64,000 nucleotides of DNA from Alphaproteobacteria bacterium (lineage in GTDB: Bacteria; Pseudomonadota; Alphaproteobacteria; SP197), in contig OZ219747.1 of NCBI GenBank assembly GCA_964291265.2, forward strand, positions 512,001 to 576,000, written 5' to 3'. A program made the position numbers and the translations under genes. Below, piece after piece: positions 3,996 to 63,741 of the stretch (position 1 is its first letter; the number at the start of each line of letters is the position of its first letter). Below the pieces are notes generated by a model. The model saw only the letters and a program-made list of their open reading frames with translations. It searched no databases and was not told the origin of the DNA.

Positions 3996-5219
3996 CTATG
4001 CCGTATCCCGGATCGCTGTCGCGTAGATGGCGAGGTCCGATGGGCTCATCCGAAGCTGTCGCGCTGTCTCTTGCCAACCGTCTATTGCGGATGCGACTTC
4101 ATCGATGATTGCATTGGCCCGGATCAGGTCCAGCGCGAAATACGGTGTAGCGGCGCGGGCCAGATCCAGATCGGCGTTCGGCCCTTCTTCCGATATCCAG
4201 GTCGTCAGTTCGCGCGCCTTTTCGGTCAGCGGCACCGGGTTCAGGTCATAGGCCGGCGAGAGGCGCCACTTGTCGTCGTGGTCGTGCAGGAAGCCATGGT
4301 TGTGGAGGTGATCGTCGAGATTGCCGACCATCACATTGAAGACGGTCCGCCTCCACAGTTCATGCAGGTCTTCGGTGGGTGCGCTTGAATACATTCTGAT
4401 GATTTCTGCGATATCCGTGTAGGTCGCTTCGTCACCGTCGCTGAGGCCGAGTAGGGTCATGGCGGAAATGAACGGGATTCTCCGGTCTTGATCACGGTCG
4501 AATCGCGTGATCAGGGACACCGGTCGACCGGCCACGTCCAGCAGTGTTGCCCGAGCAACATCGATGCCAGCAGCGGCGGCGAGTGTCATCGCGAGGACTT
4601 CGCCATGCGGGATACTGCGATCATCATCGTTCTTCGGAAACTTGGCGATCGCCAGGCGACCGTCATTGTCGATGACGGCGGACTTGGGGCGGGCGCCGCC
4701 GAGCGGCGAACCCTCGTTCAGCAGGAGCTTCAGGTCTTCGGCGGTTTCGGAGTTGGACAATACCGCATCGGCGGCGTCAAGGAGCGCCGGTAGCCGGATC
4801 AGGGGAGGCACACGGTAGCGGCCGATGTTGTGGTCGAAGGTCTCTTCGCCTTCCCGGCGATACCGGAGCGCGCCGATCCTCGTCTGATCGTTGATGGCGA
4901 GGAGATAGTCGATCTCGGACAGGGTGCGCTGCTCGCCGGCTTTGCGAAAGGCGCGCCGAATCAGCTGTTGGCCCCAGCGATCCGGGGCGGTGTCGCGCAG
5001 CGCGCCAGGCAATGCGGACTTGTTGGAGGAAGTATATATCTGGCGGCGTTCCAACGGCAGGTTCTCCGGATCCAGGGCGAAAGCATCGGCGCAGCCGTGC
5101 CACGTGTCGGCGTACTCGAAGACCGAGCTTTGGCCGTGTCGCCTGGCGATGTAGTGGCACCGGCCGACGAGAGGAGTCTGACCCTTGTGGTCGACAAGAA
5201 CCTCGATCGTGTCGGTCAT
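3996..5219 (-). CDS. hipA: HipA-family kinase toxin with N-terminal coupling domain
   Basis: DTAPDRWG, GSPLGGARPK, IAKFP, ITRFDR, NLDDHLHNHGF, LSPAYDLNP motifs. Confidence 0.9.
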   Translation of the reverse strand: MTDTIEVLVDHKGQTPLVGRCHYIARRHGQSSVFEYADTWHGCADAFALDPENLPLERRQIYTSSNKSALPGALRDTAPDRWGQQLIRRAFRKAGEQRTLSEIDYLLAINDQTRIGALRYRREGEETFDHNIGRYRVPPLIRLPALLDAADAVLSNSETAEDLKLLLNEGSPLGGARPKSAVIDNDGRLAIAKFPKNDDDRSIPHGEVLAMTLAAAAGIDVARATLLDVAGRPVSLITRFDRDQDRRIPFISAMTLLGLSDGDEATYTDIAEIIRMYSSAPTEDLHELWRRTVFNVMVGNLDDHLHNHGFLHDHDDKWRLSPAYDLNPVPLTEKARELTTWISEEGPNADLDLARAATPYFALDLIRANAIIDEVASAIDGWQETARQLRMSPSDLAIYATAIRDTA

Positions 5220-23646: not shown

Positions 23647-26845
<3,199 letters not shown>

Positions 26846-26849
<4 letters not shown>

Positions 26850-26965
26850 GACGCCGCGGCTCTGCCCGCTCCCAGGACGAACCTTGCGCGCTCGCGGCGG
26901 AGCATCTCGTACGGGCTCATGCAGCGCGGGTTCCTGGCTCGGATGAACGCCTTGACGACCGTCAC
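26846..26965 (-). pseudogene. C-terminal remnant resembling DUF4411 (PIN-like) proteins
   Basis: RCMSPYEMLRRERARFVLG; overlaps both neighbours by 4 nt. Confidence 0.4.
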
Positions 26966-28698
26966 GGTTCAAACGGTCCGTATTCGATCAAGGCGGACCG
27001 GCCGAGGATGTCCACGATGGTGACCGACAAGTCCGAGCCACGGGCGTCCGTCAGCCGTATCGGTTTGCCGGGCCGAAACGGCACGGGTTGCGGACGTCCC
27101 TCGTCGATGGCGATGTTGTCGGCATACAGATACGTCCGGTCGGTCGTATCGCGTATCGGGTTCAGCCGTCCGTGCAGGCCAGGGAGGTATCCCGAGTCCT
27201 GAGAGAAAATCGCGGCGCCACCGGATTCGAGCGGTTCGAGTTCGAGCAGCAGGCCGCCCTGATGAGGGGTCCAGGCTCGTTCCAATCCGGCGGCATAGCC
27301 CGACCCGGCAGCATAGACCGTCATCGACAAATTCGTCGTATAGAGGTCCAGAGCCGCAGCGCCGGTCTCGTCGGTCGTCGCCCGGACCCAGGTCTTGTTG
27401 GGAAAGAGCGCGAGAACCTCGATACCGGTGAGGGGCTCACCTCCGCAATGCACCGTGACTGTTGCATCGGCAGGAACAAGCTCCAGCTTGGCAGCGGGAA
27501 TGCGGAGCACCAAGCTCGATTCATCAACCAATCTGTATTCCGGCGGCAAACCGGTGGCCTCCTGGGTTTCCGCGCGGATGATCGACACGCCGTCCCCGCG
27601 GCGTTCCATCAGGTACCTGCGATGACCGGACCCGGCCACACTGGCGATGGGGACGCGCCCGAACACGGATGCGATCACCTCGTTGCGCGTGGCCTGACTG
27701 TCCTCCATGCCTTCGATGGTCATACCGTTCGGAAGCTCGCCGGGCGAATCGATCTCCAGGCGATCCTTGAACATGGAGAGCCGAATCCTGCGGGACGACA
27801 TGGAGTAGTCGCGGTGCGCCACCGCGTTGACCACCGCTTCGAACACGGCGGCCTTGCTGTACTGGACAACATCTTCCCGTTGCGGAGTCTTGCGGGCGGA
27901 AACACGCATGTTGCGAACGACGAACCGGACCGCGTCCGCGATCTGTTCGGGGAGCGGTCCGGCGATCTCCTGCGCGTCCAGCTGGCCCGAGGCGCGATCC
28001 AGTCCGCGATAGTGTGTTGCCGCGATGGTCGCTTGCGGCAACCAGTCATGCGGAGAAGGAGTGCAAAGCAGAATGCCGGCCACGGTGGCTCGATCAACGC
28101 CCGCTTCATCCTGCGCCAGCAGGCGGAGATTGCGCAGTCCCCGCCGTGGATCCGCCGCCGCCGTCACGCTGAGCAACGGCTCCCACAGGCGTTCGCTGAG
28201 TGTCTCGAAGCCGGTTTCGGGAACACTCTGCTTGTCGAACCACAGGTAGCGGTTCTGCGCGCGCTTCTGCGCCAGCCTCAGACCTTCGTCCCTGCGCAGA
28301 CGCCGCTTGGTCGCACCGACCCGGACGAATGCCTGCCCGTTCCGTTCATGCAGGGCTTCGCCGCGTGGAACTGCGACCAGCAGGAATGCTCTGCCATTCA
28401 GTTCCCTATGGTGGACGCCGATGCGCAGCGGCGGCTCAAGGGCGTCGGTGCTGACCTCCACAAGAAGGTGATCCAGCGCCGCCATCTGCTCCCGCGACAT
28501 GCCTTGGACTGTTCCATCGTCGGACACTCCACAGAGCAATGTCCCGCCGTCCGCGTTGCCGAACGCGCCCAGTTCATCCGCCCAATCGTCTCTGCGTGGG
28601 CTGGTCGGTATGTCGCCACGGAACTCGACCCGCTTGAATTCCCACTGGCTGTCCTCACCCAGGCGGAGTTGGCGGCGGATGTCTTCGTCCGTGATCAT
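26962..28698 (-). CDS. Schlafen/AlbA_2 + HATPase_c_4 protein with a beta-rich C-terminal domain
   Basis: GEDSQWEFK, AFGNADGGTLLCGVSDDG, EAVVNAVAHRDYS, DRLEIDSPG, MERRGDGV. Confidence 0.88.
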   Translation of the reverse strand: MITDEDIRRQLRLGEDSQWEFKRVEFRGDIPTSPRRDDWADELGAFGNADGGTLLCGVSDDGTVQGMSREQMAALDHLLVEVSTDALEPPLRIGVHHRELNGRAFLLVAVPRGEALHERNGQAFVRVGATKRRLRRDEGLRLAQKRAQNRYLWFDKQSVPETGFETLSERLWEPLLSVTAAADPRRGLRNLRLLAQDEAGVDRATVAGILLCTPSPHDWLPQATIAATHYRGLDRASGQLDAQEIAGPLPEQIADAVRFVVRNMRVSARKTPQREDVVQYSKAAVFEAVVNAVAHRDYSMSSRRIRLSMFKDRLEIDSPGELPNGMTIEGMEDSQATRNEVIASVFGRVPIASVAGSGHRRYLMERRGDGVSIIRAETQEATGLPPEYRLVDESSLVLRIPAAKLELVPADATVTVHCGGEPLTGIEVLALFPNKTWVRATTDETGAAALDLYTTNLSMTVYAAGSGYAAGLERAWTPHQGGLLLELEPLESGGAAIFSQDSGYLPGLHGRLNPIRDTTDRTYLYADNIAIDEGRPQPVPFRPGKPIRLTDARGSDLSVTIVDILGRSALIEYGPFEP

Positions 28699-30365
28699 GG
28701 CGCAACCCCCTCTACAGCGCGCTCCCCATCCCGAAGGCTGATTTCGCCGGACATGAGCTTTGGGAGAAGCAGATCGCGGAGAGCGCCAATGGTCTCGATC
28801 TGGTGCAGATTGCTCAGGGCGCGTCTCATAATCGGCATCGCCCACACCTCAAAGGCTTCTGCGACGCTCACCGGTGGCAAGGCTAAATCGACCAGAGCAA
28901 AAGTCTGGCGTGTGATCGTGTCAAAAATCGTGCCGTGCGTCCGGTTCCGCAACTCTTCCACCATCATTCTGACAAGCCAGTATGTGAAGAAGTCACAATA
29001 GCCGCCGACGCCTCGTATCCCGTAGCAACTCTGATTCATGGCCATCGCCCTGCCGAGACAAGCCAACTTTCCGACAGTGCCCCTTGCGGTAATAACGGTC
29101 GTTCCGGCCGAAAGAACTTCTGCCGCACTGTTTTCAACCCCTGTTTGCGTAATGCTCCTCTCGGTCTCCAGGACGAACATGTCCGAGGAAGATGGCGCAT
29201 CTTTTGCCGTATACCAATAAATTTCGCCATCCCAATAATCTTCGATTGACGTTTTAGGCGTACCTCCACTGTGAATTTCTATTACATCATCTAAAACTCC
29301 TGCCTCCCACCCCACCGGTATCTCACCAAGTTCGGAGTTGACGAAGCGGTCAGGAAACAGTTCCCACAGGTCAGGGACGAGGTAAGGGGCACGCCCTTCC
29401 ATCTTCGCCCGGACCGGTCCGAAATCGACGAACCAGTCCTTGAAGATCGCCCGCGCCATCGCCTCCAGCGTCTCGTTCATGCACCGGTTCAGTTCGATCT
29501 TGTCTTCCAAACTCTCAACAAGTTGCAGAAACGTGCGACGAATGGGCGTTAGTGAAGGTATCGGAAAGGAAAGGAAGTCATCACGGGAGAGACCTAGGTT
29601 GGTCGTCCCCGTGGCGTGTGCCTTGCAATATGCTCGATACTGAGGAGTCCTCAGCATCCAGTAGATGTATGTTTTGACAGATTCGTCATCCTTGAAGTTC
29701 AGCTTTACCGTGTCTTGGGTAAGCCTTCCTTGCGAAATCGTATCCGGAACCCGTGCAATGGCGCCAAGCAGATCAGCAGATTGCGTTACGTCCTTCAAAG
29801 ACACATAGATGTCACCGGGCTCTAGAAGGATCCGTTTGTCGGAAGGACCACCATAGGTCTTGAGGTTGTCAGGTCGAAAGCCTCCATTGCGTGCAATGGA
29901 GGCCAACCCCAGCAAAACTGGCCCATCTTGTCCCAGCAAGGCACTCTTGTAGGTACTCCCCCTTTGCAAGTCGACATAGTCTCCGAGAGTACTGATCGAT
30001 TGGTCCAGACGACTGACCGCATCAGAGCCCTGCGCCGGAACATGGACACTCAGCCCGTCACGGCGGATTATTTTGCGGAAGGTTTCGTCAATGCTCGCCC
30101 AATCGACAATATCAACCTTAAAGGGAAGGTCGGACTCGCTAAACGCGTCGACCAGCGCCGTGCTTACGTCCAGCGGTAGCGACTCCTTACCTATAATGGC
30201 GAGATCGAGATCAGAGTAGTTCTTCGCCGTCCAGGTCGCACGAGATCCGAAAGTCACTACCTGCCGATCCGGGACGTACCGCTGCAGAATGTTCCGCACG
30301 ACTGCCCAATGATCGGGCCGAAGGTCAAGGTGCGTCGTTTCCTCGTTCATGCCAGACGGTCTCAC
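28695..30365 (-). CDS. hsdS: Fusion of a minimal nucleotidyltransferase (MNT) and type I R-M specificity subunit HsdS
   Basis: N-terminal FGSRATWTAKNYSDLD and LPFKVDIVD; then two TRDs with LEDKIELN..NETLEAMARAIFKDWFVDF, ELGEIPVGW, LRDLLLPKLMSGEI; ATG at 30350 or GTG at 30365. Confidence 0.9.
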   Translation of the reverse strand: MRPSGMNEETTHLDLRPDHWAVVRNILQRYVPDRQVVTFGSRATWTAKNYSDLDLAIIGKESLPLDVSTALVDAFSESDLPFKVDIVDWASIDETFRKIIRRDGLSVHVPAQGSDAVSRLDQSISTLGDYVDLQRGSTYKSALLGQDGPVLLGLASIARNGGFRPDNLKTYGGPSDKRILLEPGDIYVSLKDVTQSADLLGAIARVPDTISQGRLTQDTVKLNFKDDESVKTYIYWMLRTPQYRAYCKAHATGTTNLGLSRDDFLSFPIPSLTPIRRTFLQLVESLEDKIELNRCMNETLEAMARAIFKDWFVDFGPVRAKMEGRAPYLVPDLWELFPDRFVNSELGEIPVGWEAGVLDDVIEIHSGGTPKTSIEDYWDGEIYWYTAKDAPSSSDMFVLETERSITQTGVENSAAEVLSAGTTVITARGTVGKLACLGRAMAMNQSCYGIRGVGGYCDFFTYWLVRMMVEELRNRTHGTIFDTITRQTFALVDLALPPVSVAEAFEVWAMPIMRRALSNLHQIETIGALRDLLLPKLMSGEISLRDGERAVEGVAP

Positions 30366-30746
30366 AATTTGTCGCGCAAATAAGTCACCTCTCTGATGAA
30401 TTGAGAAATGCCTTCGACCACCTCGAGCGCGGTATTCTCATTGTAGGTGTGGCTGGTTTTCGCACGCATGCCACGAAAGTCGCGCCAACTCGGCCAGTCT
30501 CCCAACAAAAGGCCCTGCTCGTTGCCCGTTCGAATTAAATCCTGAAACGTCATCTCATCGAATTGCCCCGGGTTGGCCGAAGCATATTCGAGATAGCGCT
30601 TCAGACTCTTGTGCGCGAGCTCATAGGTGAACTCGAAACGCTGAATCAGACCATCGCGAATTTGTGTATCGCTCTCGTTGTCTTGATATCGCAGAAGCCC
30701 TTCTTCAAGGCGTTGAATTGCGCGTTCAAAGGGCGCAATCTCGACA

Positions 30747-30763
<17 letters not shown>
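30362..30763 (-). CDS. HI0074-family HEPN protein (nucleotidyltransferase substrate-binding subunit)
   Basis: [25 protein letters not shown] (RX4HXY). Confidence 0.9.
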
Positions 30764-32245
<1,482 letters not shown>

Positions 32246-32659
32246 GTGGTCCCTGACCGTTACTTTACCCACAAAGACGCAGTTTGCCCGGCCAGTCCTA
32301 TGAACACCACGTTGGTCCTGTCCGACGCGGCTCGAGCGGTTGACTGTCCCGCGTAACGCCACGTCAATGCTCTCGCATGGCCGACACTGCGCGGCAGAGT
32401 GACATGATAGCGGATCATGGGCTGAATGTCGTCCGACTCGCCGTTCGGTCAGCGAGCCATGGGATCAGGGTCACAACCAGTCCGAAGCCGGGTATCCGGT
32501 CGACGCATCCGAGTCACCATCCAACTCGATGCCGTCCGTCCACTCGGGTTCCTTGGGCCTCACGCAAAGCGGCGTTCGCTCCCCCTCGGGTTGAGGGGAC
32601 GGCCTGCCGGTGAACGAGAGCCCCGGGCATCGCGGCCAACATGTTGCCGTGGCGCCTCC

Positions 32660-32887
32660 GCCTTGTACCCCATGGCGCGCGCGATGACGTCCGCGGCTTG
32701 CGTGGCAACGGCCCGCAGCGCGCTGTCGCCGAGATGGACGCAGACCGCACGGTGGTCTCGCTCTGGCGGGCCGAGCAGGCCATCCGACCGTGGCGAGCCC
32801 GACGCCGTTCATGATGACGCCCTGCAAAGTCCAGGTATGGCGGCAGCCGTGGATGCGAAGACCAGGCTGCCCGGCTTCATCCCGCAT
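32660..32887 (-). pseudogene. Tyrosine integrase C-terminal remnant
   Basis: RDEAGQPGLRIHGCRHTW..GVIMNGVGLATVG, frameshift, VHLGDSALRAVATQAADVIARAMGY. Confidence 0.75.
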
Positions 32888-32975
32888 GTCGACCCAGAAG
32901 GTATGGAGCCTTGCCCTGCCCTTTGGTCACAAATCGTGCTGAACATGATGATTCGGATGGTGCACCCTGCCCTGC

Positions 32976-33885
32976 ATGGAAGCACACATTCCGATCAAAC
33001 GCGTCCTTGAGGACCAGCTCGAACGCCTGCAGTCGATCGTCACCGAGAGCGGCGATAGTAGTCAAAACCGCCTGGCGCTGGAAGTGTGCCGGCACTTCGG
33101 CCTGCGGGACGCACGGGGACGCGAGCGGGTATCGAGCTGTGTCGTGGCCCTGAAGCAGCTGGCATCGCAGGGCAGGATCGAGGGATTGCCGGAGCCCTCC
33201 GGTCAGCGGCGTCGGGCACCGCCCCGCCGGCTCGGCGAGGCGGTGGAGAAGCCGCGTGATGTGCCGGCGAGCGTGGCGGCGATCCAGGGTCTGCGGATCC
33301 TGCTGGTGCGCACGGATGCCGAACGGGCGTACTGGAACGAACTGATGGCGCGGGAGCACTTTCTCGGCGCCCCCACCCTGGCCGGTCATCAGCTGCGCTA
33401 TCTGGTGGATTCCGCTCACGGCTGTCTCGGCGGTTTCGGCTTTGCCGCAGCGGCGCTGAAGGTGGCGGATCGGGATGCCTGGATCGGCTGGGATGCCGAC
33501 CGGCGTCGTGCGGAGCGACACCGGGTGTTGTCGATGAGCCGGTTTCTGATCCGGGTGCCGGTTGCGAACCTTGCGTCGAAGACGCTGTCGATGTGCCTGT
33601 CTCGCCTGGGCGCCGATGTTGCGCAGCGCTACAGGTTCCTGCCCTGGCTGGTCGAGACCTATGTCGACCCGACGCGCGACGGTGCGAGCCTGCGGGCGGC
33701 GAACTGGCAGCTCGTGGGGTTCACCCGGGGCCGAGGCCGCCAGGACCGCGCGCGCGAGATGGCCGAGAGCGTCAAGGCCGTGTACACGTACGTTCTGGAC
33801 CGGGACTGGCGGCACAAGCTGGGGGTGGCGGAGCCGATGCCGGCCCTGTCCCCGGGGGAGGGTCTGGACGCCTCGACGTGGGCGC
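32976..33885 (+). pseudogene. N-terminal DUF4338 (DruA-like) part of the IS4 transposase fusion
   Basis: WNELMAREHFLG, QLRYLV, RDAWIGWD, SRFLI, NLASK, ETYVD, RAANW, TRGRGRQD; breaks after GLDASTWA. Confidence 0.8.
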
Positions 33886-34210
33886 ACCCGGATCCCCGCC
33901 AACGTGATCGTGCCGATGTTCCAGGCGATGACCGTGTCGGAACCCGACTGGGTCATGGTGAAATCGTCGAAGCTCGCTATCTCGAGAAATCCCGAAGCGG
34001 CCCTTCGTCCAAACCGGAATAGTCAGGGGGCATGGCTATGAGGCCCTGACCGTCCTGAAAGTCGGTGATCGTGTCGCTTCCTTTCTTTCTTTGTCCTGGG
34101 GCCTGTGCTCCACTTTTGGGCAAGACGAACCGATCACTGCCGGCCTCGCCCTCGAAGGTGTCGTCGCCTTTGTCGCCGATCAGCACATCGTCGCCGTAAA
34201 GGAGGCCCGA
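33886..34210 (-). pseudogene. RTX C-terminal fragment
   Basis: GDDVLIGDKGDDTFEGEAGSDRF, GSDTITDFQDG, frameshift, TQSGSDTVIAWNIGTITLAG. Confidence 0.7.
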
Positions 34211-34274: not shown

Positions 34275-36071
34275 CTAGGCGACAAAAACGAAGTCGAAGT
34301 CGTCGATGGTCAGGGTTTCCATACTGATGTTGACCAGCGTGATGGTGTCCCCCGCATCGCCGTAGCCGATGACGGTATCGTCGCCGTCCTGGCGGATATT
34401 CAGCGACTCGAAAGCGGCTTCGTCCGAGGTGTCGCCCGGAAGGCTGAGATGAAGCTGGATGACTTCCCTCACCGAAAACTCGCTCAACCCGCTCGCGATG
34501 CGGCCGAAGAGCCAGATCGTGTCCTGCCCGTCGCCCTCTTCGAACACGAAGTTCTCGATCCCAATTCTGCCGCCAACCATGGTGTCGTTGCCCCTGCCGC
34601 CAACCATGGTTGAGTAGCCGAAGTTGAAGAGTTCGGTACCAGCCGCCAGATAGTCGTCGCCGGCCCCGCCGTTCAGCGTGTCGTCGCCGCCGTCGCCCCA
34701 CAGATAGTCGTCGCCCTCGCCACCGTTCAGCGTGTCGTCGCCGGCATTGCCGTGGAGGGTGTCGTCGCCGCCGCCGCCGTTGAGAATGTCGTCACCGCCG
34801 AAGCCCCAGAGGGCGTCATCGCCCTCGCCGCCGTTCAGCGTGTCGTCGCCGTCGCCGCCGGAGAGGAAGTCATCGCCGTCGCCGCCGTTGATGGTGACGG
34901 CGTTTGGGCCGGCATGGTCAAGGAACGCCTTGCGATACTCACTGAAGACAATGGCAGGAAAGATGAAATCGTCCTCATCGAGGGATGCCGCCGATACGCC
35001 CGTCAAGGTGATCGTATTGTCGGCGCCGTAGTGAATGACGGCATCGGCGCCGTCCTGTTCGATGCGCAACGCCTCAAACCCGCCGTACCCGCCATGATCA
35101 ATCTTGATCCTGTCCCCGTCCCGGAAGTCGGTAATGGTGTCGCCGCCGTTGCTCACAAGGTATCCAAAATTCCCGTTGTACGCCGGGTTACTCACCGTGA
35201 AATGGAAGGTGTCGTTGCCGGCGCCGCCGGTGAGCGTGTCGTCGCCGGCGCCGCCGGTGAGCGAGTCGTCGCCGGCACCGCCGTGGAGGGTGTCGTCGCC
35301 GGCGCCACCGTACATTTTGTCGACGCCATCCCCGCCATGCAACGTGTCGTCGCCGTCGCCGCCCGACAGATGGTCGTCGCCGGCGCCACCGTACAGCGTG
35401 TCGTCGCCGCCTTCGCCTATCAGGCGGTCCCTGCCGTCACCGCCGGTGAGCGTATCGTCGCCGTCGCCGCCCCGGATCCTGTTCACGAGCGTTGCCCTGA
35501 CGAATGTAATGGGAGTGGGAGGCAGGATGAAGTCGTCCTCACCGAGGGAGGTCGCCGTGATACCGGTCATCCGGATCGTGTCGCCGCTGTCGCCGTAGCG
35601 GATGACGGCGTCGGCGCCGTCCTGTTCGATGACCAGCGCCGCAAACCCGCCGGATACGCCATCCAGGCGAATCCTGTCGCCACCCCCGAAGTCGGTAATG
35701 GTGTCGTCGCCGTCTCCCGCCGCGAACACGAAGGTGTCGGCGCCCTTGCCACCGGCCAGCGTGTCATCGCCGGCCCCGCCGGTCAGCGTATCGGCGCCCC
35801 TGGCGCCGCGCAGGGTGTCGTCGCCAGCTCCGCCCATCAGCGTGTCATTGCCCTTGCCGCCCCCCAGGGTGTCGTCGCCAGCCCCGCCGGTCAGCGTGTC
35901 AGCGCCCAGGCCGCCATAGAGGAGGTCGTCGCCGGCCCCACCGGTCAGCGTGTCGGCACCCCTGTAGCCCCGCAGGGTGTCGTCGCCATCACCACCTGTC
36001 AGCGTGTCCGCGTCCTTGCCGCCCTTCAGGGTGTCGTCGCCGGCGCTGCCGGTCCGCTTGATAGTCATCAC
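34275..36071 (-). CDS. RTX calcium-binding repeat protein, 598 aa
   Basis: Three GGxGDDTL blocks each followed by a DTIxxF..QDGxDxVIxYG..TIxL module; AGGAG RBS. Confidence 0.92.
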   Translation of the reverse strand: MMTIKRTGSAGDDTLKGGKDADTLTGGDGDDTLRGYRGADTLTGGAGDDLLYGGLGADTLTGGAGDDTLGGGKGNDTLMGGAGDDTLRGARGADTLTGGAGDDTLAGGKGADTFVFAAGDGDDTITDFGGGDRIRLDGVSGGFAALVIEQDGADAVIRYGDSGDTIRMTGITATSLGEDDFILPPTPITFVRATLVNRIRGGDGDDTLTGGDGRDRLIGEGGDDTLYGGAGDDHLSGGDGDDTLHGGDGVDKMYGGAGDDTLHGGAGDDSLTGGAGDDTLTGGAGNDTFHFTVSNPAYNGNFGYLVSNGGDTITDFRDGDRIKIDHGGYGGFEALRIEQDGADAVIHYGADNTITLTGVSAASLDEDDFIFPAIVFSEYRKAFLDHAGPNAVTINGGDGDDFLSGGDGDDTLNGGEGDDALWGFGGDDILNGGGGDDTLHGNAGDDTLNGGEGDDYLWGDGGDDTLNGGAGDDYLAAGTELFNFGYSTMVGGRGNDTMVGGRIGIENFVFEEGDGQDTIWLFGRIASGLSEFSVREVIQLHLSLPGDTSDEAAFESLNIRQDGDDTVIGYGDAGDTITLVNISMETLTIDDFDFVFVA

Positions 36072-36101
36072 ATGATCTCCTGATCCCAGCTATGGGAACA
36101 C

Positions 36102-36131
36102 ACTCTACCCCCCCCCCGCCGGTCAAGTCAA
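36102..36131 (-). promoter_or_regulatory. Sigma70-like promoter with a G10 tract in the spacer
   Basis: Minus strand TTGACT-tgaccggc-GGGGGGGGGG-TAGAGT (18-nt spacer); C10 at 36108-36117 on the plus strand. Confidence 0.65.
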
Positions 36132-36379
36132 GGGATTTCTTTCCGTCGGCGTCGCGCAGCTCGGCGCAGGCCGATCCCGGGCCGATCATTCCGCTTTTCG
36201 CACGTGACCGTGTGCCGGCCATGACGACGCCCGCGACCCCCGTTTCCCCCATCGACCCTTGCCGAGGCGACGGTCGAGCCCGACCCGTGGCGCACCTATC
36301 TCCCGGGACCCCGCTCTTGCCGACGTCGCCGTCATGGCGGGGGCATGCCCGCCCCAACCTTCATCGTACGCACGATTTC

Positions 36380-37696
36380 CGGGCCTATTATCGGTTCCTG
36401 GATCAGCCGGAGACGTCGGCGGTGACCCCGGCGAACATCCTGGCGCCGCACCGCCAGCGAACGGTGCAGCGGATGTGCGGCCAGCGGGTGGCGTTGTGCA
36501 TTCAGGACGGGACGGACCTGAACTTCGCGACCCGTCCGGGCGGCGACGGTCTGAGCATCATCGGCACGAACCAGACGGCCTCGCAGACCCTGGGCCTGCA
36601 CCTGCACGCCAGCTACGTTGTCAGCGGCGAAGGCCTGCCGCTGGGGGTGGCGCGTCTTGCCTTCGACGCACCTCCGCGCCCCCGGGCGAAGACCGGTTCG
36701 GGTGAGGATGCCGAGATGTCCCGGCGCAAGTCGCAGCGCTGGCTCGACGGTCTCGACGACATCGCGGACCTCGCGGCCCGGACGACCGGGGTGAAGGTCG
36801 TGTGCGTGATGGACCAGGAAGCGGACTTCTTCGAGCTGTTCGACCGGTGCCGGCAGCATCGCCGTCTGTCGATGCTGGTGCGGGCTCGACATGACCGGGT
36901 TCTCAAGCGCGGGGCTGCGAAGCTGTTCACCCGACTACGTACGTCTGCCTGCTGCGGCGCCATGCAGATCGACATACCCCGCCTGACGGCCCGGCCGAAG
37001 TCTTCGGGGCGCCAGAAGCAGCCCGGCCGCACTGCCCGGCGGAACGCGGTGCTGGAACTGCGCTGGTTGTCGACCACGCTGCCGGCGACTGCCGGCTGCC
37101 CCGATGCCGCGCCCGTGGCCGTGACCGCGCTGCATCTCCTCGAGACGGCCCCGCCGGCCGGGGAAGCTCCGGTGGAATGGTTCCTGTTGACCGACCTTCC
37201 GGTGGACCACGCCGAAGCGGCCCGGGAGATCGTCGGCTGGTACGCGCTGCGCTGGCGGATCGAATGCTGGTTCCGGGTGCTGAAGTCCGGCTGCCGGGTG
37301 GAGCACCTGGCGACGCGCAAGGCCTGCCGCCTGGAACGGCAGATCACCATCCACGCCGTGATCGCCTGGCGTCTTGCCCTGATGACCCTGCTCGGGCGGG
37401 ACGTGCCGACGATGAAGCCCGACTGCCTGTTCTCGGACCTGGAACTCCGCTTCCTCGGCGACTATGCCCGGCGATACCGGCTGGACCCGCCCGACACACT
37501 GGGGGCGGCGGTGAAGCTGGTGGCGATCCTTGGCGGGTATCTGGACCGCAAGCATGATCCGGCGCCGGGCAACCAGACGATGTGGCATGGCTATCCGCGA
37601 CTGGCCACCGCCGCCCTTGCCTATGAATGCCTGCTCGAGGCCATCGATCTGGATCCGACATCGCAAGGACATGATCATGACCTGCGCGATGTGTGA
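36380..37696 (+). pseudogene. IS4 (Tn5-like) DDE transposase, C-terminal part
   Basis: YYRFLDQP, CIQDGTDLNF, VMDQEAD, WFLLTDL, WYALRWRIECWFRVLKSGC (YREK), LGGYL. Confidence 0.88.
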
Positions 37697-60049: not shown

Positions 60050-60412
60050 CTCCTAGATAGCAAGGCGAGGCTGAGGACGGCCCCGCCCGGCAGCAGCGCC
60101 CGCGCCATCGTCGACCGGCAGCCGCGCACGGTCAGCGCGTTCGTATTTCCCTCGCCACGCAACTCCGCACGGCCCTAACCTACCGCTCTGGACCGGATTC
60201 GGCGGGAAGCCGGGATCAAGGATGTACACCTGCATGATTTTCGACATACAATGGCAAGCCATACGGTGATGAACGGCGTGCCCGTCTTGGCCGTCTTCCG
60301 TCTGCTCGGACAATCCGATGTGCGGATGATGATGCGTTACGCCCATCTCGCCGACCACGACATCGACGCCGCGGCGGAACGCGTCGGAACAGCGATGAAC
60401 GGCAATCTGGAG
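60050..60412 (+). pseudogene. Tyrosine integrase C-terminal remnant
   Basis: LDSK..RT...ARAIVDRQPR..FVFPSP, IRREAGIKDVHLHDFRHT, RLLGQS, MRYAHLAD. Confidence 0.82.
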
Positions 60413-61081
60413 ACAAAGCCGGGGCCGCCTTCAATGAGGTCGTCACCGGCCTCACCATGGAGCCAGTCGGTGCGGTCGCTGCCGTAGAGAATATCGACCC
60501 CCGCACCGCCGTAGACCTCGAAGTGCTCGCCGCGACTCACGGTGACGCTGGGAGGGAGTATGAAGTTGTCCTCGCCGAGGGACGACGACGCCAACACGCC
60601 CGACAGGGTAATCGTTTCGCCGCCGCCGACATAGCGAATGACGTCATTGGAGCCGTGCTGCTCGATCACCAGATCCGCGAAACCGCCGGACACGCCGGCG
60701 ATCTCGATGCGGTCGCCTGCCTCGAAACCGGCGATGCGTTCGGCCCCGTCCCCCACCGCGAAGGCGAAGACATCGGCTCCCATGCCGCCATTGAGGTTGT
60801 CGTTGCCCCGGCCGTCCGTCCGCCGGTCACCGCCCTGCCCGCCGAACAGGCGGTCGGCGCCGTCACCCCCCTCGAGTATGTCGGCCCCAGTGCCGCCGTT
60901 CAGCGTGTCATCGTCCGAACTACCGGGGTTCATGGCGAGAAAGTCCGCGTCGGCTCCCGGATTTACGGTTCTGCCCGTCAGCCTGATCATCGCCGAGGCC
61001 ACACGTTAGAATATCGTTGCCGAGACCGCCCGTCAAGGTGTCGTTGTCAGAACCGCCGGTCCAGGAAATATCCTGTGTCAT
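60413..61081 (-). pseudogene. RTX repeat protein pseudogene (frameshift, 3'-truncated)
   Basis: MTQDISWTGGSDNDTLTGG, frameshift near 60990, GGTGADILEGGDGADRLFGG, IEQHGSNDVIRY..TITL. Confidence 0.82.
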
Positions 61082-61417: not shown

Positions 61418-63741
61418 CCTTTCAACCACCCACGCGTGTATAGGGATCTTAGTCCCGCCTTCTTGCGCCAAGTGCGTCACGCACCTGGATCGCCCAGTTC
61501 AGCCTTTCGAGACCCTGCCAGAGCTTCTTCGCTCCCGGGAGCGTCTGGCGCGGCGTGGGATGCCACCCGACGAGGCGCCCAAGGCCGATGACGACGGCAC
61601 GGACATCGCCCATCGCCCGGACCTCCCGGTGACCCTGGGATTCCAGCAGCGTGCGGAGCAGGTCGATGTCCTCCTCGGCAAACACCTCGCTCGCCGGGGT
61701 CAAGGGACGCTCGCGCGCAAGCACGGTCAGGTCGGCAACATGGACGGCGGTGACGGCGTCGAAGGCAAGGCACGTCTTCAGGTCGTCGGCCCTGTCGAGC
61801 CGGCGGTCCTTGATCCGGGTCCCGGTCTTCAGCGTGCGGAACCAGGTCTCGATGCTCCATCGCGTCCGGTACCAGCCCAGGACGGTCGCCGCGTGCACGG
61901 CCTCGGCCTCCCCTGGTGCCGGGCGCTCGGTGGTCAGCAGCAGCCAGTGCAGGGCCTCGTCGCCGTCACCGGTTCCGGCCTCGCTGGCCGAGACCGCGAA
62001 CATGGACACAGGCTCCGCGTCGCGCTCTTTTTGCGGCGGTGCCACCTCGACCTGTGCCGTGCGGATCTCGAGACGGGCGACGCGCTCCTTGCGGGCGCGC
62101 GGGCCGCCAGCGGCCGGGATCGTCAGCTCCGTCACCGCGACCAGCGGCCGGGCCGCGACATGCTTCCACAGGCACTTCTTTTTGCCGTCGGGCTCACCCA
62201 CGCGCTGTTTCGCCGAACGGCTCGCACGCACCAGCAGCGCGGCTCCGGCGTCCGCGGCATGGGCGAGCAGTTCCCAGAAGTCGCCCTCGCGGTCGCAGAC
62301 CGAGACCACACGCGTGTCCGGGCAGGCCGCCGCGAGCTCCCGGGCCCGCTCGAGCCCGGTGACCCAGCGCTGACTGTCCTCCCCGGGCTCCTGCCGAAAG
62401 GCCGCATCCATCGTGAACAGGCCCAGCGGCCGGCCCTCCGACGTCACCGCCAGACCGGCGTGGGCGAGGATGCCGACGCTCCCCTTGCCGCCGCCGCCGA
62501 GCTTGTCCAGACCCTTCGTGGCCTCCAGGCCGCTGTAGTTGATCGCCGTCGTGTCCTGTATCGCAAGGACAAGAGGCTCTGTCCGACAACGCTCCACGGT
62601 CGCCTCAACATGCGCTGCCAGAACGTGCTCCATGGATACCCTCGGGTTCGACAGCAACCGATAAGCGGCCTTCTGCTCCGCCTTCTCGGGAAAGATGATC
62701 GGCAGGTCCTCCCCCATGTTCTTCATCCAGGCCCGGCCCATGTCAACGATGCGTCGCCGCACCCGGCCGTCGGTATGGCGCGTGCGCCCGTACTCCCGCT
62801 CCGCCCAGTCCGCGTCAGTGCCGTCATAGACGCCCGCCAGGGCGCCGAGTGGACGGCGCTGTATCCCGTGGAGCACCGTCCGCCAGCCGCTCTCCAGGGC
62901 CAGGACCCGCACCGTGCCAACCTCGCCGCGGCGCCCGCTGGTCCGCCCGGCCACGGTCCAGCCGGCGCAGTGGTAGCAATAGCCGCTGTGCTCCGCACCG
63001 ACATGAGTGTAGGCCGCCACCTTAGCGCACCGCGTAGCGGGCCTCCCAGTCGTCGGCGATGCGCTCCGCCGCCATGCGCAGGACCCTCAGACGCCAGTCC
63101 GTAGACCCGAACGCCGGGAAGCAGGAGAAACCGATGACCGCAGATCACACGCTCGATGTTGGCGGCACGGGCGTCGGCGGACCATGCGATCCACTCATCC
63201 CGCGCCCGCAGCTGCCAGGTCGCGGACCCGAAGCCGATCCCGCCGAGGGTGCCGTGGCGCTGCGAGCGGATCCAGGTGCGCACCTGGCCGCCGGGCGAGC
63301 GCGTCCATCCCAGCGGGTGGTGCGTCGCCATCATCGCCTCCCAGAGACGGCGATCGTCGGCCTCGCCCACCGGTTCGAGCGAGACCGGGCCGAGATCCTC
63401 CAGCAGGCAGACCAGCTTGGTGTCGGGGACGTCACCGGCCGGGACGGCGGGCACGACGGTCGGATCGGGCACGCTCCGCGGCAGCGGAAGCTCCAACCCC
63501 ACGCGCTCGGCGAGCGCCGGCAGCACCTTCGCCGCCGCCGACAGGCACGGACGGCCGAGCGCGTTGCGCCAGCCGGTGCGCTCGCAAAGCTCGCGTGCCA
63601 GACCGTGACGGGTGGCGTCGGCGGAGCGCAACGCGCCGGCAAACCAGTCAAGCGTCTGCGAATCGAAATGGCGGAGACCAACCTGCATGCCCGCAGCATG
63701 CACGAAACGAATCACCTATGCAGGTCCGATCCTTTGAAAGG
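61418..63741 (-). mobile_element. IS4-family element with a DUF4338-DDE transposase (frameshifted near 63020-63090)
   Basis: Bipartite TIRs CCTTTCAA-N11-TG(T/C)ATAGG at both ends; ORF 63688 to 61449 with RDEWIAWS, AIQDTT, CDREGD, WYRTRWSIETWFRTLK. Confidence 0.9.

Follow-up and report, generated by a model that had tools for sequence, protein, structure and literature searches.

Type VII toxin-antitoxin (TA) modules of the HEPN/MNT kind combine a HEPN toxin with an MNT nucleotidyltransferase that AMPylates the tyrosine of the toxin's RX4HXY motif, and the HEPN subfamily concerned is a Mg2+-dependent ribonuclease (RNase) cutting rRNA (PMC7641770, PMC11586414). The Legionella pneumophila toxin can do without the R and H of its RX4HXY motif and relies on a Q/E-Mg2+ site for catalysis (PMC11586414), and the trigger of such modules is called an open question in PMC7641770. 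HEPN backups have been predicted for restriction-modification (R-M) systems generally, with R-M clustering listed for HEPN-T and not for the PF08780 group (PMC3710099). We analyzed a window of 64,000 nucleotides from an alphaproteobacterium (assembly GCA_964291265.2, contig OZ219747.1, positions 512,001 to 576,000), in which a type I R-M operon holds a HEPN gene followed by a single frame for an MNT domain and the specificity subunit HsdS (MNT::HsdS). To judge from the sequences, this architecture is real, widespread, and convergent, and HEPN and MNT::HsdS likely form a working type VII pair inside the R-M operon. The fusion likely ties toxin silencing to HsdS supply and may give a self-poisoning backup defence.

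Predicted toxin and fused antitoxin in the window

The operon lies on the minus strand in the order hsdM, HEPN, MNT::HsdS, a Schlafen AlbA_2/HATPase_c_4 gene, and hsdR. The toxin gene, of the HI0074/NTase_sub_bind family (30362..30763, minus strand), encodes 133 aa matching PF08780 (E 1e-34, 119.7 bits) and, above cut-off, the TIGR01987 HI0074 model, and it carries RX4HXY as R100-AKTS-H105-T-Y107 along with a QRFE motif with Q41 and E44. These matches and residues bear out the initial annotation, which had called an intact HI0074-type HEPN with RAKTSHTY ahead of an MNT-HsdS protein. The predicted structure (predicted local distance difference test, pLDDT, 94) aligns with HI0074 (1JOG) at a template modelling (TM) score of 0.86-0.88, with Legionella HEPN (8XDJ) at ~0.80, and with Shewanella HepT at ~0.54-0.66. 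R100, H105, and Y107 were invariant in 72 alignment rows, but these had been chosen for the motif; among complete HEPN proteins of fused loci, which were not selected for it, 47 of 53 kept RX4HXY. The Q-x-F-E site has K instead in some HEPN lineages, so catalysis may differ between them. With PF08780 as its only domain and no ABC-ATPase fused to HEPN, the protein falls outside the PrrC type.

The GTGA overlap of HEPN with the next frame, also described in the initial annotation, is present but secondary: all 5 close relatives have a sense codon at the TGA position and couple by ATGA five codons on. Since these relatives read through and use the ATGA overlap, the ancestral MNT start is ATG 30350 (551 aa), with the in-frame GTG 30365 as an alternative, and the premature TGA leaves the window HEPN without ~5 C-terminal residues.

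The whole MNT::HsdS frame (28695-30365, minus strand) has no break between its two parts. The HI0073-like MNT domain (30030..30350, minus strand) matches PF18765 and PF01909 and holds GSX10DXD with a third Asp (G34, S35, D46, D48, and D79), and it continues in frame through a linker into a complete HsdS (28695..30029, minus strand; PF01420) with target recognition domain 1 (TRD1), a central conserved coil, TRD2, and a distal coil, the two TRDs and two conserved coils of a type I specificity subunit; motifs and order are as first annotated. The predicted structure follows this order, with MNT, a low-confidence linker (residues 106-115), TRD1, coiled coil, TRD2, and coiled coil, and at a predicted TM score (pTM) of 0.44 the orientation of the domains is not fixed by the model. 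The MNT model aligns with HI0073 (1NO5) at TM 0.84 and 49% identity, and the domain scores below the cut-off of the NCBIfam MntA equivalog (35 vs 60 bits). We found no in-frame ATG or GTG in the linker. The antitoxin thus departs from canonical type VII in being in frame with HsdS and not a free small protein. A methylome of a fused example was looked for and none was found.

Distribution, origins, and exchange of the fusion

Searching with the MNT part yielded 587 matches in 688 candidates of 305-973 aa, and all 120 matches listed contained HsdS, as MNT-HsdS (105), MNT-MNT-HsdS (14), or HEPN-MNT-HsdS (1); a broader profile gave 3,957 matches of 189-2,000 aa in 7,997 scored proteins, 120 of them listed. 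With the same fusion in hundreds of independent sequences, it is not an assembly accident. The PADLOC HsdS model PDLC03138 has an MNT-matching N-terminus, which shows only that such sequences were among its training set. In a locus census enriched for long frames, whose loci are non-independent (duplicates L074-L102, L228, L186, and L002 excluded), we identified 62 MNT::HsdS loci, 61 with GSX10DXD and 58 with a HEPN gene directly upstream, and HEPN and MNT lineages agreed in 56 of 56 fusion loci. The fusion is therefore recurrent with a conserved HEPN neighbour, and not the one-off that the initial annotation had named as a danger to its proposal. The census also held 9 unfused modules before hsdS (2 more, L019 and L158, are likely), 1 MNT::HsdM, 1 MNT::HsdR, and 121 standalone MNTs, and two scans with MNT alone (140 domains) gave 115 standalone, 12 fused, and 4 unfused domains, 7 after hsdM without hsdS, and 2 HEPN-MNT fusions. 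Everything was whole in the fetched flank, including hsdM and hsdR, at 23 of the 62 fusion loci, and hsdR was present in most. A single R-M family is involved, all 60 loci with a usable HsdM being at least 55% identical to that of L001, a second operon in the same genome; five MNT::HsdR clusters form a separate set in an EcoR124-like family.

Fusions span several phyla. Of 22 same-genus genomes 7 have them, as do 15 of 201 genomes from the phylum of genome G402; further cases come from named records of Pseudomonadota and Nitrospirota and from the source genomes of one Rhodothermales and one Dehalococcoidia locus, and many of the closest names belong to lineages that we take to be sponge symbionts. 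Among cultured bacteria, an intact fused operon is carried by plasmid pZMOB01 of Zymomonas mobilis ATCC 10988 (WP_014466415, WP_014466388, WP_014466389, and WP_014466390). As a test case, the HsdSp of Z. mobilis ZM4 pZM32, whose deletion is viable (PMC8432527), proved irrelevant, with an hsdR-hsdM-hsdS operon, a 420-aa HsdS, and no HEPN or MNT. A phage collection yielded 7 records with weak TRD-only matches and no fusion. Longer MNT::HsdS proteins (713-896 aa, one of 455 aa) were also observed (L010, L224, P0045, P0071, P0074, P0124, P0125, P0129, and P0226), with DUF559/PF04480 nuclease domains apparently between the TRDs in the P proteins. The window genome itself has a standalone HEPN/MNT pair of a lineage fused elsewhere (L003 3874-4831; G000:C2 ~1.212 Mb), and several same-genus genomes encode similar 115-aa standalone MNTs with HEPN.

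Fused MNTs fell into four clusters at 50% identity, interleaved with unfused MNTs, and a single clade of fused MNTs was rejected by the approximately unbiased test (p-AU 0.007; 22 fused vs 26 other rows subsampled from 188, excluding nine standalone rows nested among fused ones). Fusion of MNT to HsdS has thus arisen repeatedly, in at least four MNT lineages, and fissions could explain part of the pattern. That the nested standalone MNTs are truncated fusions is unsupported, no TRD remnant being found behind L006, L007, L011, L014, or L066.

Over 40 complete loci, MNT identity tracked HEPN identity (rho 0.66, Mantel p 0.001) and was uncorrelated with HsdM (-0.16), TRD1 (-0.04), and TRD2 (0.02). 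Of the 181 pairs whose HsdM proteins share at least 80% identity, 136 have MNTs <45% identical, unrelated toxin pairs occur on HsdM proteins at least 85% identical, and similar TRD1s are joined to unrelated MNTs via linkers differing in both length and sequence. The genome's two copies had suggested HEPN-MNT-TRD1 as one moving cassette, which is ruled out by the independence of TRD1 from MNT over the 40 loci. The HEPN/MNT pair shuffles independently of HsdM, TRD1, and TRD2, and so gives no hint of a HEPN-Hsd interface that has co-evolved as in PrrC, the precedent named by the initial annotation. Median ratios of nonsynonymous to synonymous substitution (dN/dS) were 0.16 for HEPN and 0.18 for MNT in 54 non-independent pairs, values indicating that both are under purifying selection.

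Tandem MNT-MNT proteins (n = 120) always combined domains of different lineages; all 120 outer motifs were intact, against 38 broken inner motifs, 4 of them altered by a two-residue insertion and possibly functional. Modules stacked or nested at the same spot (L010, L212, L225, and L233) show a route to the tandem forms. An intact outer and a decayed inner domain mean that catalytic constraint follows the toxin, not HsdS, and co-variation with HEPN, purifying selection, and the tandem motif pattern together argue that MNT serves HEPN and not the Hsd subunits. A possible decay series within one clade was observed in L194, L195, L197, and L198, in which HEPN first loses RX4HXY (dN/dS still ~0.2), followed by deletion of HEPN and loss of DxD from MNT.

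The HsdM-HEPN junction was never fused (0 of 58), and MNT occurs fused to each of the Hsd subunits, HsdS, HsdM (L227), and HsdR (5 clusters). Only L056 among the 121 standalone MNTs has a long non-Hsd fusion; a co-directional open reading frame (ORF) lies close behind in 38 of 132 standalone modules, some of these ORFs being spurious. The fusion pattern cannot separate selection for tethering from selection to keep hsdS translated and tolerated. Three of these loci are described further. L227 (3575-6882) encodes HEPN, MNT::HsdM, HEPN, and a truncated MNT::HsdS, so that two different pairs are tethered to two Hsd subunits. In L240 (3863-7156) and P0245-P0249 (5 clusters), MNT is fused to an EcoR124-type HsdR, and the operon includes genes that we take to be RhuM-like and Fic-like; of HEPN, no more than an N-terminal remnant resembling it was seen in L240. 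In L056 (2459-3805), a HEPN gene precedes an MNT that continues into a NACHT N-terminal helical domain (PF22735) and a P-loop.

Probable decay of the window operon, and its surroundings

The window hsdM (30747..32245, minus strand) and hsdR (HSDR_N, ResIII, SWI2_SNF2, and T1RH-like_C; 23647..26849, minus strand) are both broken, and both frames are whole in the paralogous second operon (L001, C2 ~3.811-3.822 Mb; G000:C2:3806000-3825000). Compared with L001, the window hsdM lacks 1 nt at ~31445 within motif IV (NPPF) as well as in-frame segments of 15, 30, and 24 nt, and around 30900 a +1 and a -1 shift compensate each other; hsdR lacks 1 nt at ~26456. At the DNA level, hsdR and the AlbA gene are 99% and hsdM 88% identical between the operons; the HEPN proteins are only 26-27% and the MNT::HsdS proteins 31% identical, and within the cassette only 160 bp (90%), located at the central conserved region, match closely. 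Frame changes affected 5 of 147 orthologous ORFs in the assembly (65,471 aa), 2 of them judged real mid-gene shifts. Against this background, two shifts in ~1,600 aa together with in-frame deletions point to decay rather than sequencing error in hsdM and hsdR, and the R-M part of the window is probably a decaying pseudo-operon outlived by its TA part. The initial annotation had placed the pair between hsdM and hsdR; that order holds, but both genes are frameshifted here and the AlbA_2/HATPase_c_4 gene also intervenes before hsdR. The window copy is a poor test case, and the pZMOB01 copy is the one to use.

The AlbA gene of L001 is disrupted by an IS66 element, which also encodes a D12-class adenine methyltransferase. 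A third remnant in the genome (L002; G000:C2:3762000-3780000) has an hsdM with a stop and an hsdR fragment with transposons between them, and no HEPN, MNT, or hsdS was detected in it. At another hsdS of the genome, a 577-aa frame was due to an upstream open frame and not to an MNT. On the 5' side of the window hsdM, a decayed stretch (32471..32893, minus strand; 78% identical to the equivalent position in L001) resembles what we take to be the motif of a tyrosine-integrase C-terminus, with no match in Pfam. A promoter and terminator scan gave nothing beyond chance. The cargo gene encoding Schlafen AlbA_2 and HATPase_c_4 domains (26962..28698, minus strand), ATGA-coupled to hsdS, sits between hsdS and hsdR and is found in a minority of fusion loci. 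It is a candidate second effector, which fits the listing of Schlafen-histidine-kinase proteins as backup effectors in BREX-related loci (PMC12839542).

Elsewhere in the window we observed three RTX calcium-binding repeat proteins (251-2710, 34275-36071, and 60340-61002), a HipA-like kinase gene (3999-5219), and several copies of DruA-domain (PF14236) proteins, either joined to transposases of IS4/Tn5-like and ISAs1-like kinds or separated from them (32976-34022, 36092-37696, and 61452-63715; also L002 5568-7217 and 11185-13539), one such element apparently being split by the RTX gene at 34275-36071.

Functional readings and comparison with described systems

We favour, with moderate confidence, a type VII TA module whose antitoxin is made and turned over as HsdS. 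With MNT carried on HsdS, silencing would depend on how much of the specificity subunit is made and on how long it lasts. By analogy with characterized relatives, the HsdS-borne MNT is predicted to AMPylate Tyr107 of HEPN (PMC7641770, PMC11586414), and HEPN would act as a Mg2+-dependent RNase via Q41/E44, as in the relative of PMC11586414. The toxin would be translated upstream of its antidote, and the antidote would be synthesized, built into M2S or R2M2S, and turned over as HsdS. Should the locus be lost, the host be shut off, or HsdS be degraded or sequestered when a phage attacks, unmodified HEPN would arrest the cell. The module would thereby have a backup and maintenance role requiring no specific HEPN-HsdM contact.

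Several observations weigh against this reading. Of the 62 loci, 8 have a decayed HEPN and 4 have none; 5 of the 12 keep whole hsdM and hsdR genes, which shows that the module is dispensable. Truncated HsdS fusions stand beside motif-intact HEPN in L199, L227, and L230; many linkers among the listed fusions retain an in-frame Met (examples, the count being incomplete), so free HsdS may also be made at some loci; and Acetobacter plasmids carry the unfused order hsdM-HEPN-MNT-hsdS-hsdR. Tight coupling is further called into question by two operons that have kept HEPN and MNT::HsdS: that of L213, where neither hsdM nor hsdR could be detected, and that of the window, where each of these genes is broken. 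AMPylation is covalent and hard to reverse, so coupling via antitoxin loss may be slow, and the 62:9 ratio of fused to unfused modules stems from the long-frame-enriched, non-independent set. Addiction to the specificity cassette, which the initial annotation had offered as one outcome, is unlikely in its strict sense, since breaks in HsdS spare the N-terminal MNT, truncated fusions persist by motif-intact HEPN, and 9 loci are unfused. The truncated, unfused, and toxin-less variants also speak against an obligatory coupling of the PrrC kind.

A bolder version, which we consider rather unlikely, is that HsdS of one type I family has a third exchangeable module, a tethered enzymatic antitoxin that is serially replaced, and that the methyltransferase complex would be a swappable tripwire freeing an RNase when anti-restriction proteins or proteolysis strike. 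Such a guard system would then be masked across hundreds of genomes by the annotation "restriction endonuclease subunit S".

The rival that survives best, a serious one although we doubt it, treats the pair as a selfish passenger. HEPN/MNT modules would colonize the variable hsdM-hsdS junction as ordinary addiction modules with no functional link to restriction, in-frame fusion being favoured only as preserving hsdS translation after start loss, in an HsdS that tolerates an N-terminal domain and an R-M family that is mobile. This would account for the lack of correlation of MNT with HsdM (-0.16) and TRD1 (-0.04), the modules stacked or nested at one spot, the dead inner MNTs that remain fused, the intact R-M genes in toxin-less and decayed variants, the persistence of the pair beyond R-M decay in the window and L213, and the standalone state of most relatives (115 of 140 domains). 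It sits less easily with the use of translational coupling at all other operon junctions, HsdM-HEPN being unfused in 58 of 58, or with a fusion that arose in four or more MNT lineages and involves HsdS, HsdM, and HsdR alike, but hardly ever non-Hsd neighbours.

We regard as improbable a direct guard, PrrC- or Ronin-like, in which HEPN is held by MNT on M2S until Ocr, ArdA, or a Stp-like peptide frees HEPN or blocks MNT and abortive infection follows. Precedents exist in PrrC/EcoprrI (PMC12707154, PMC3710099) and Ronin (10.1101/2023.04.06.535777), and the restriction to one HsdM family (60 of 60 at least 55% identical to that of L001) speaks for this reading. Loci with hsdM and a broken or absent hsdR would be decoys, and at 8 of 62 loci hsdM, HEPN, and HsdS are all intact and hsdR is either broken or unseen in the flank, but hsdR may simply lie outside the fetched sequence. 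MNT does not co-vary with HsdM, HsdM proteins at least 85% identical carry unrelated toxin pairs, the linkers vary in length and sequence and have low pLDDT, and the Legionella MNT requires the HEPN tetramer and modifies it covalently instead of caging it (PMC11586414). Very improbable is a repurposed MNT that nucleotidylates HsdM, HsdR, or DNA ends to regulate restriction, with HEPN incidental: although motif-intact MNT::HsdS without HEPN occurs in 3 loci (L218, L226, and L231), 82 of 120 inner MNTs keep the motif, and the MNT::HsdR of L240 is accompanied by no more than a HEPN-like remnant, the motif has been lost solely from the toxin-distal copy (38 vs 0 of 120) and in the toxin-less locus L198, and an intact inner MNT can retain its own HEPN further upstream (L212).

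Our preferred reading, an antitoxin made and turned over as HsdS, describes an apparently new architecture. The initial annotation knew of no characterized example, and our literature searches likewise found no account of MNT fused to HsdS, although figures, some supplements, and subscription journals lay outside their coverage and may show it; HsdS goes unmentioned in the searched text of PMC3710099, of which Figures 4-5 and most of Additional file 1 were outside the search. Pipelines that expect a pair of short neighbouring ORFs would likely overlook these modules, and deleting such an hsdS to aid transformation would remove the antitoxin. The dead inner MNTs are also a readable record of toxin replacement.

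Among described systems, HepT/MntA of Shewanella oneidensis (PMC7641770) shares an RX4HXY toxin beside a GSX10DXD nucleotidyltransferase, and PF08780/PF01909 pairs are counted there within class I HEPN/MNT. HepT, however, belongs to DUF86/PF01934 and MntA is a free protein, whereas here the antitoxin is a domain of HsdS; class I modules usually have MNT upstream (PMC3710099), whereas in the window the toxin comes first. The initial annotation had taken HepT/MntA as its template, which is not the best one, since in the Legionella HEPN, the closest characterized relative, R and H are dispensable and the catalytic Q/E-Mg2+ site aligns to Q41/E44. The HI0074/HI0073 pair of Haemophilus influenzae and the Legionella pair are of the same subfamily (HEPN TM 0.80-0.88; MNT 49% identical to 1NO5), window Q41/E44 corresponding to the Legionella Q44/E47 Mg2+ site and Y107 to the AMPylated Y105 (PMC11586414); they differ in being two-gene modules, and "restriction" is unmentioned in the searched passages of that paper. 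FhepTA (PMC13000451) resembles the present case as a fusion within type VII TA, but there the toxin is fused to the antitoxin, and the searched passages mention neither HsdS nor restriction.

From the R-M side, PrrC/EcoprrI (PMC12707154, PMC3710099) likewise embeds a HEPN RNase gene in a type I R-M operon, but PrrC is an ABC-ATPase-HEPN anticodon nuclease restrained by non-covalent R-M contact, whereas the window HEPN is small, has a separate enzymatic antitoxin on HsdS, and is exchanged independently of HsdM. Ronin (10.1101/2023.04.06.535777) shares an HsdMS-linked toxin and is described as causing death upon anti-restriction proteins independently of HsdR and NPPF catalysis; it differs in its toxin, RonA, a membrane protein of 61 aa that HsdMS itself keeps in check, with no antitoxin enzyme and no fusion. 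The Ronin-type decoy arrangement (hsdMS and toxin, no hsdR) is not what we see, hsdR being present in most loci and the window toxin unrelated to RonA. The locus is built from two known kinds of system, type VII TA and type I R-M, and its architecture physically links abundant type VII modules with the idea of R-M backup, predicted in 2013 and with few worked examples.

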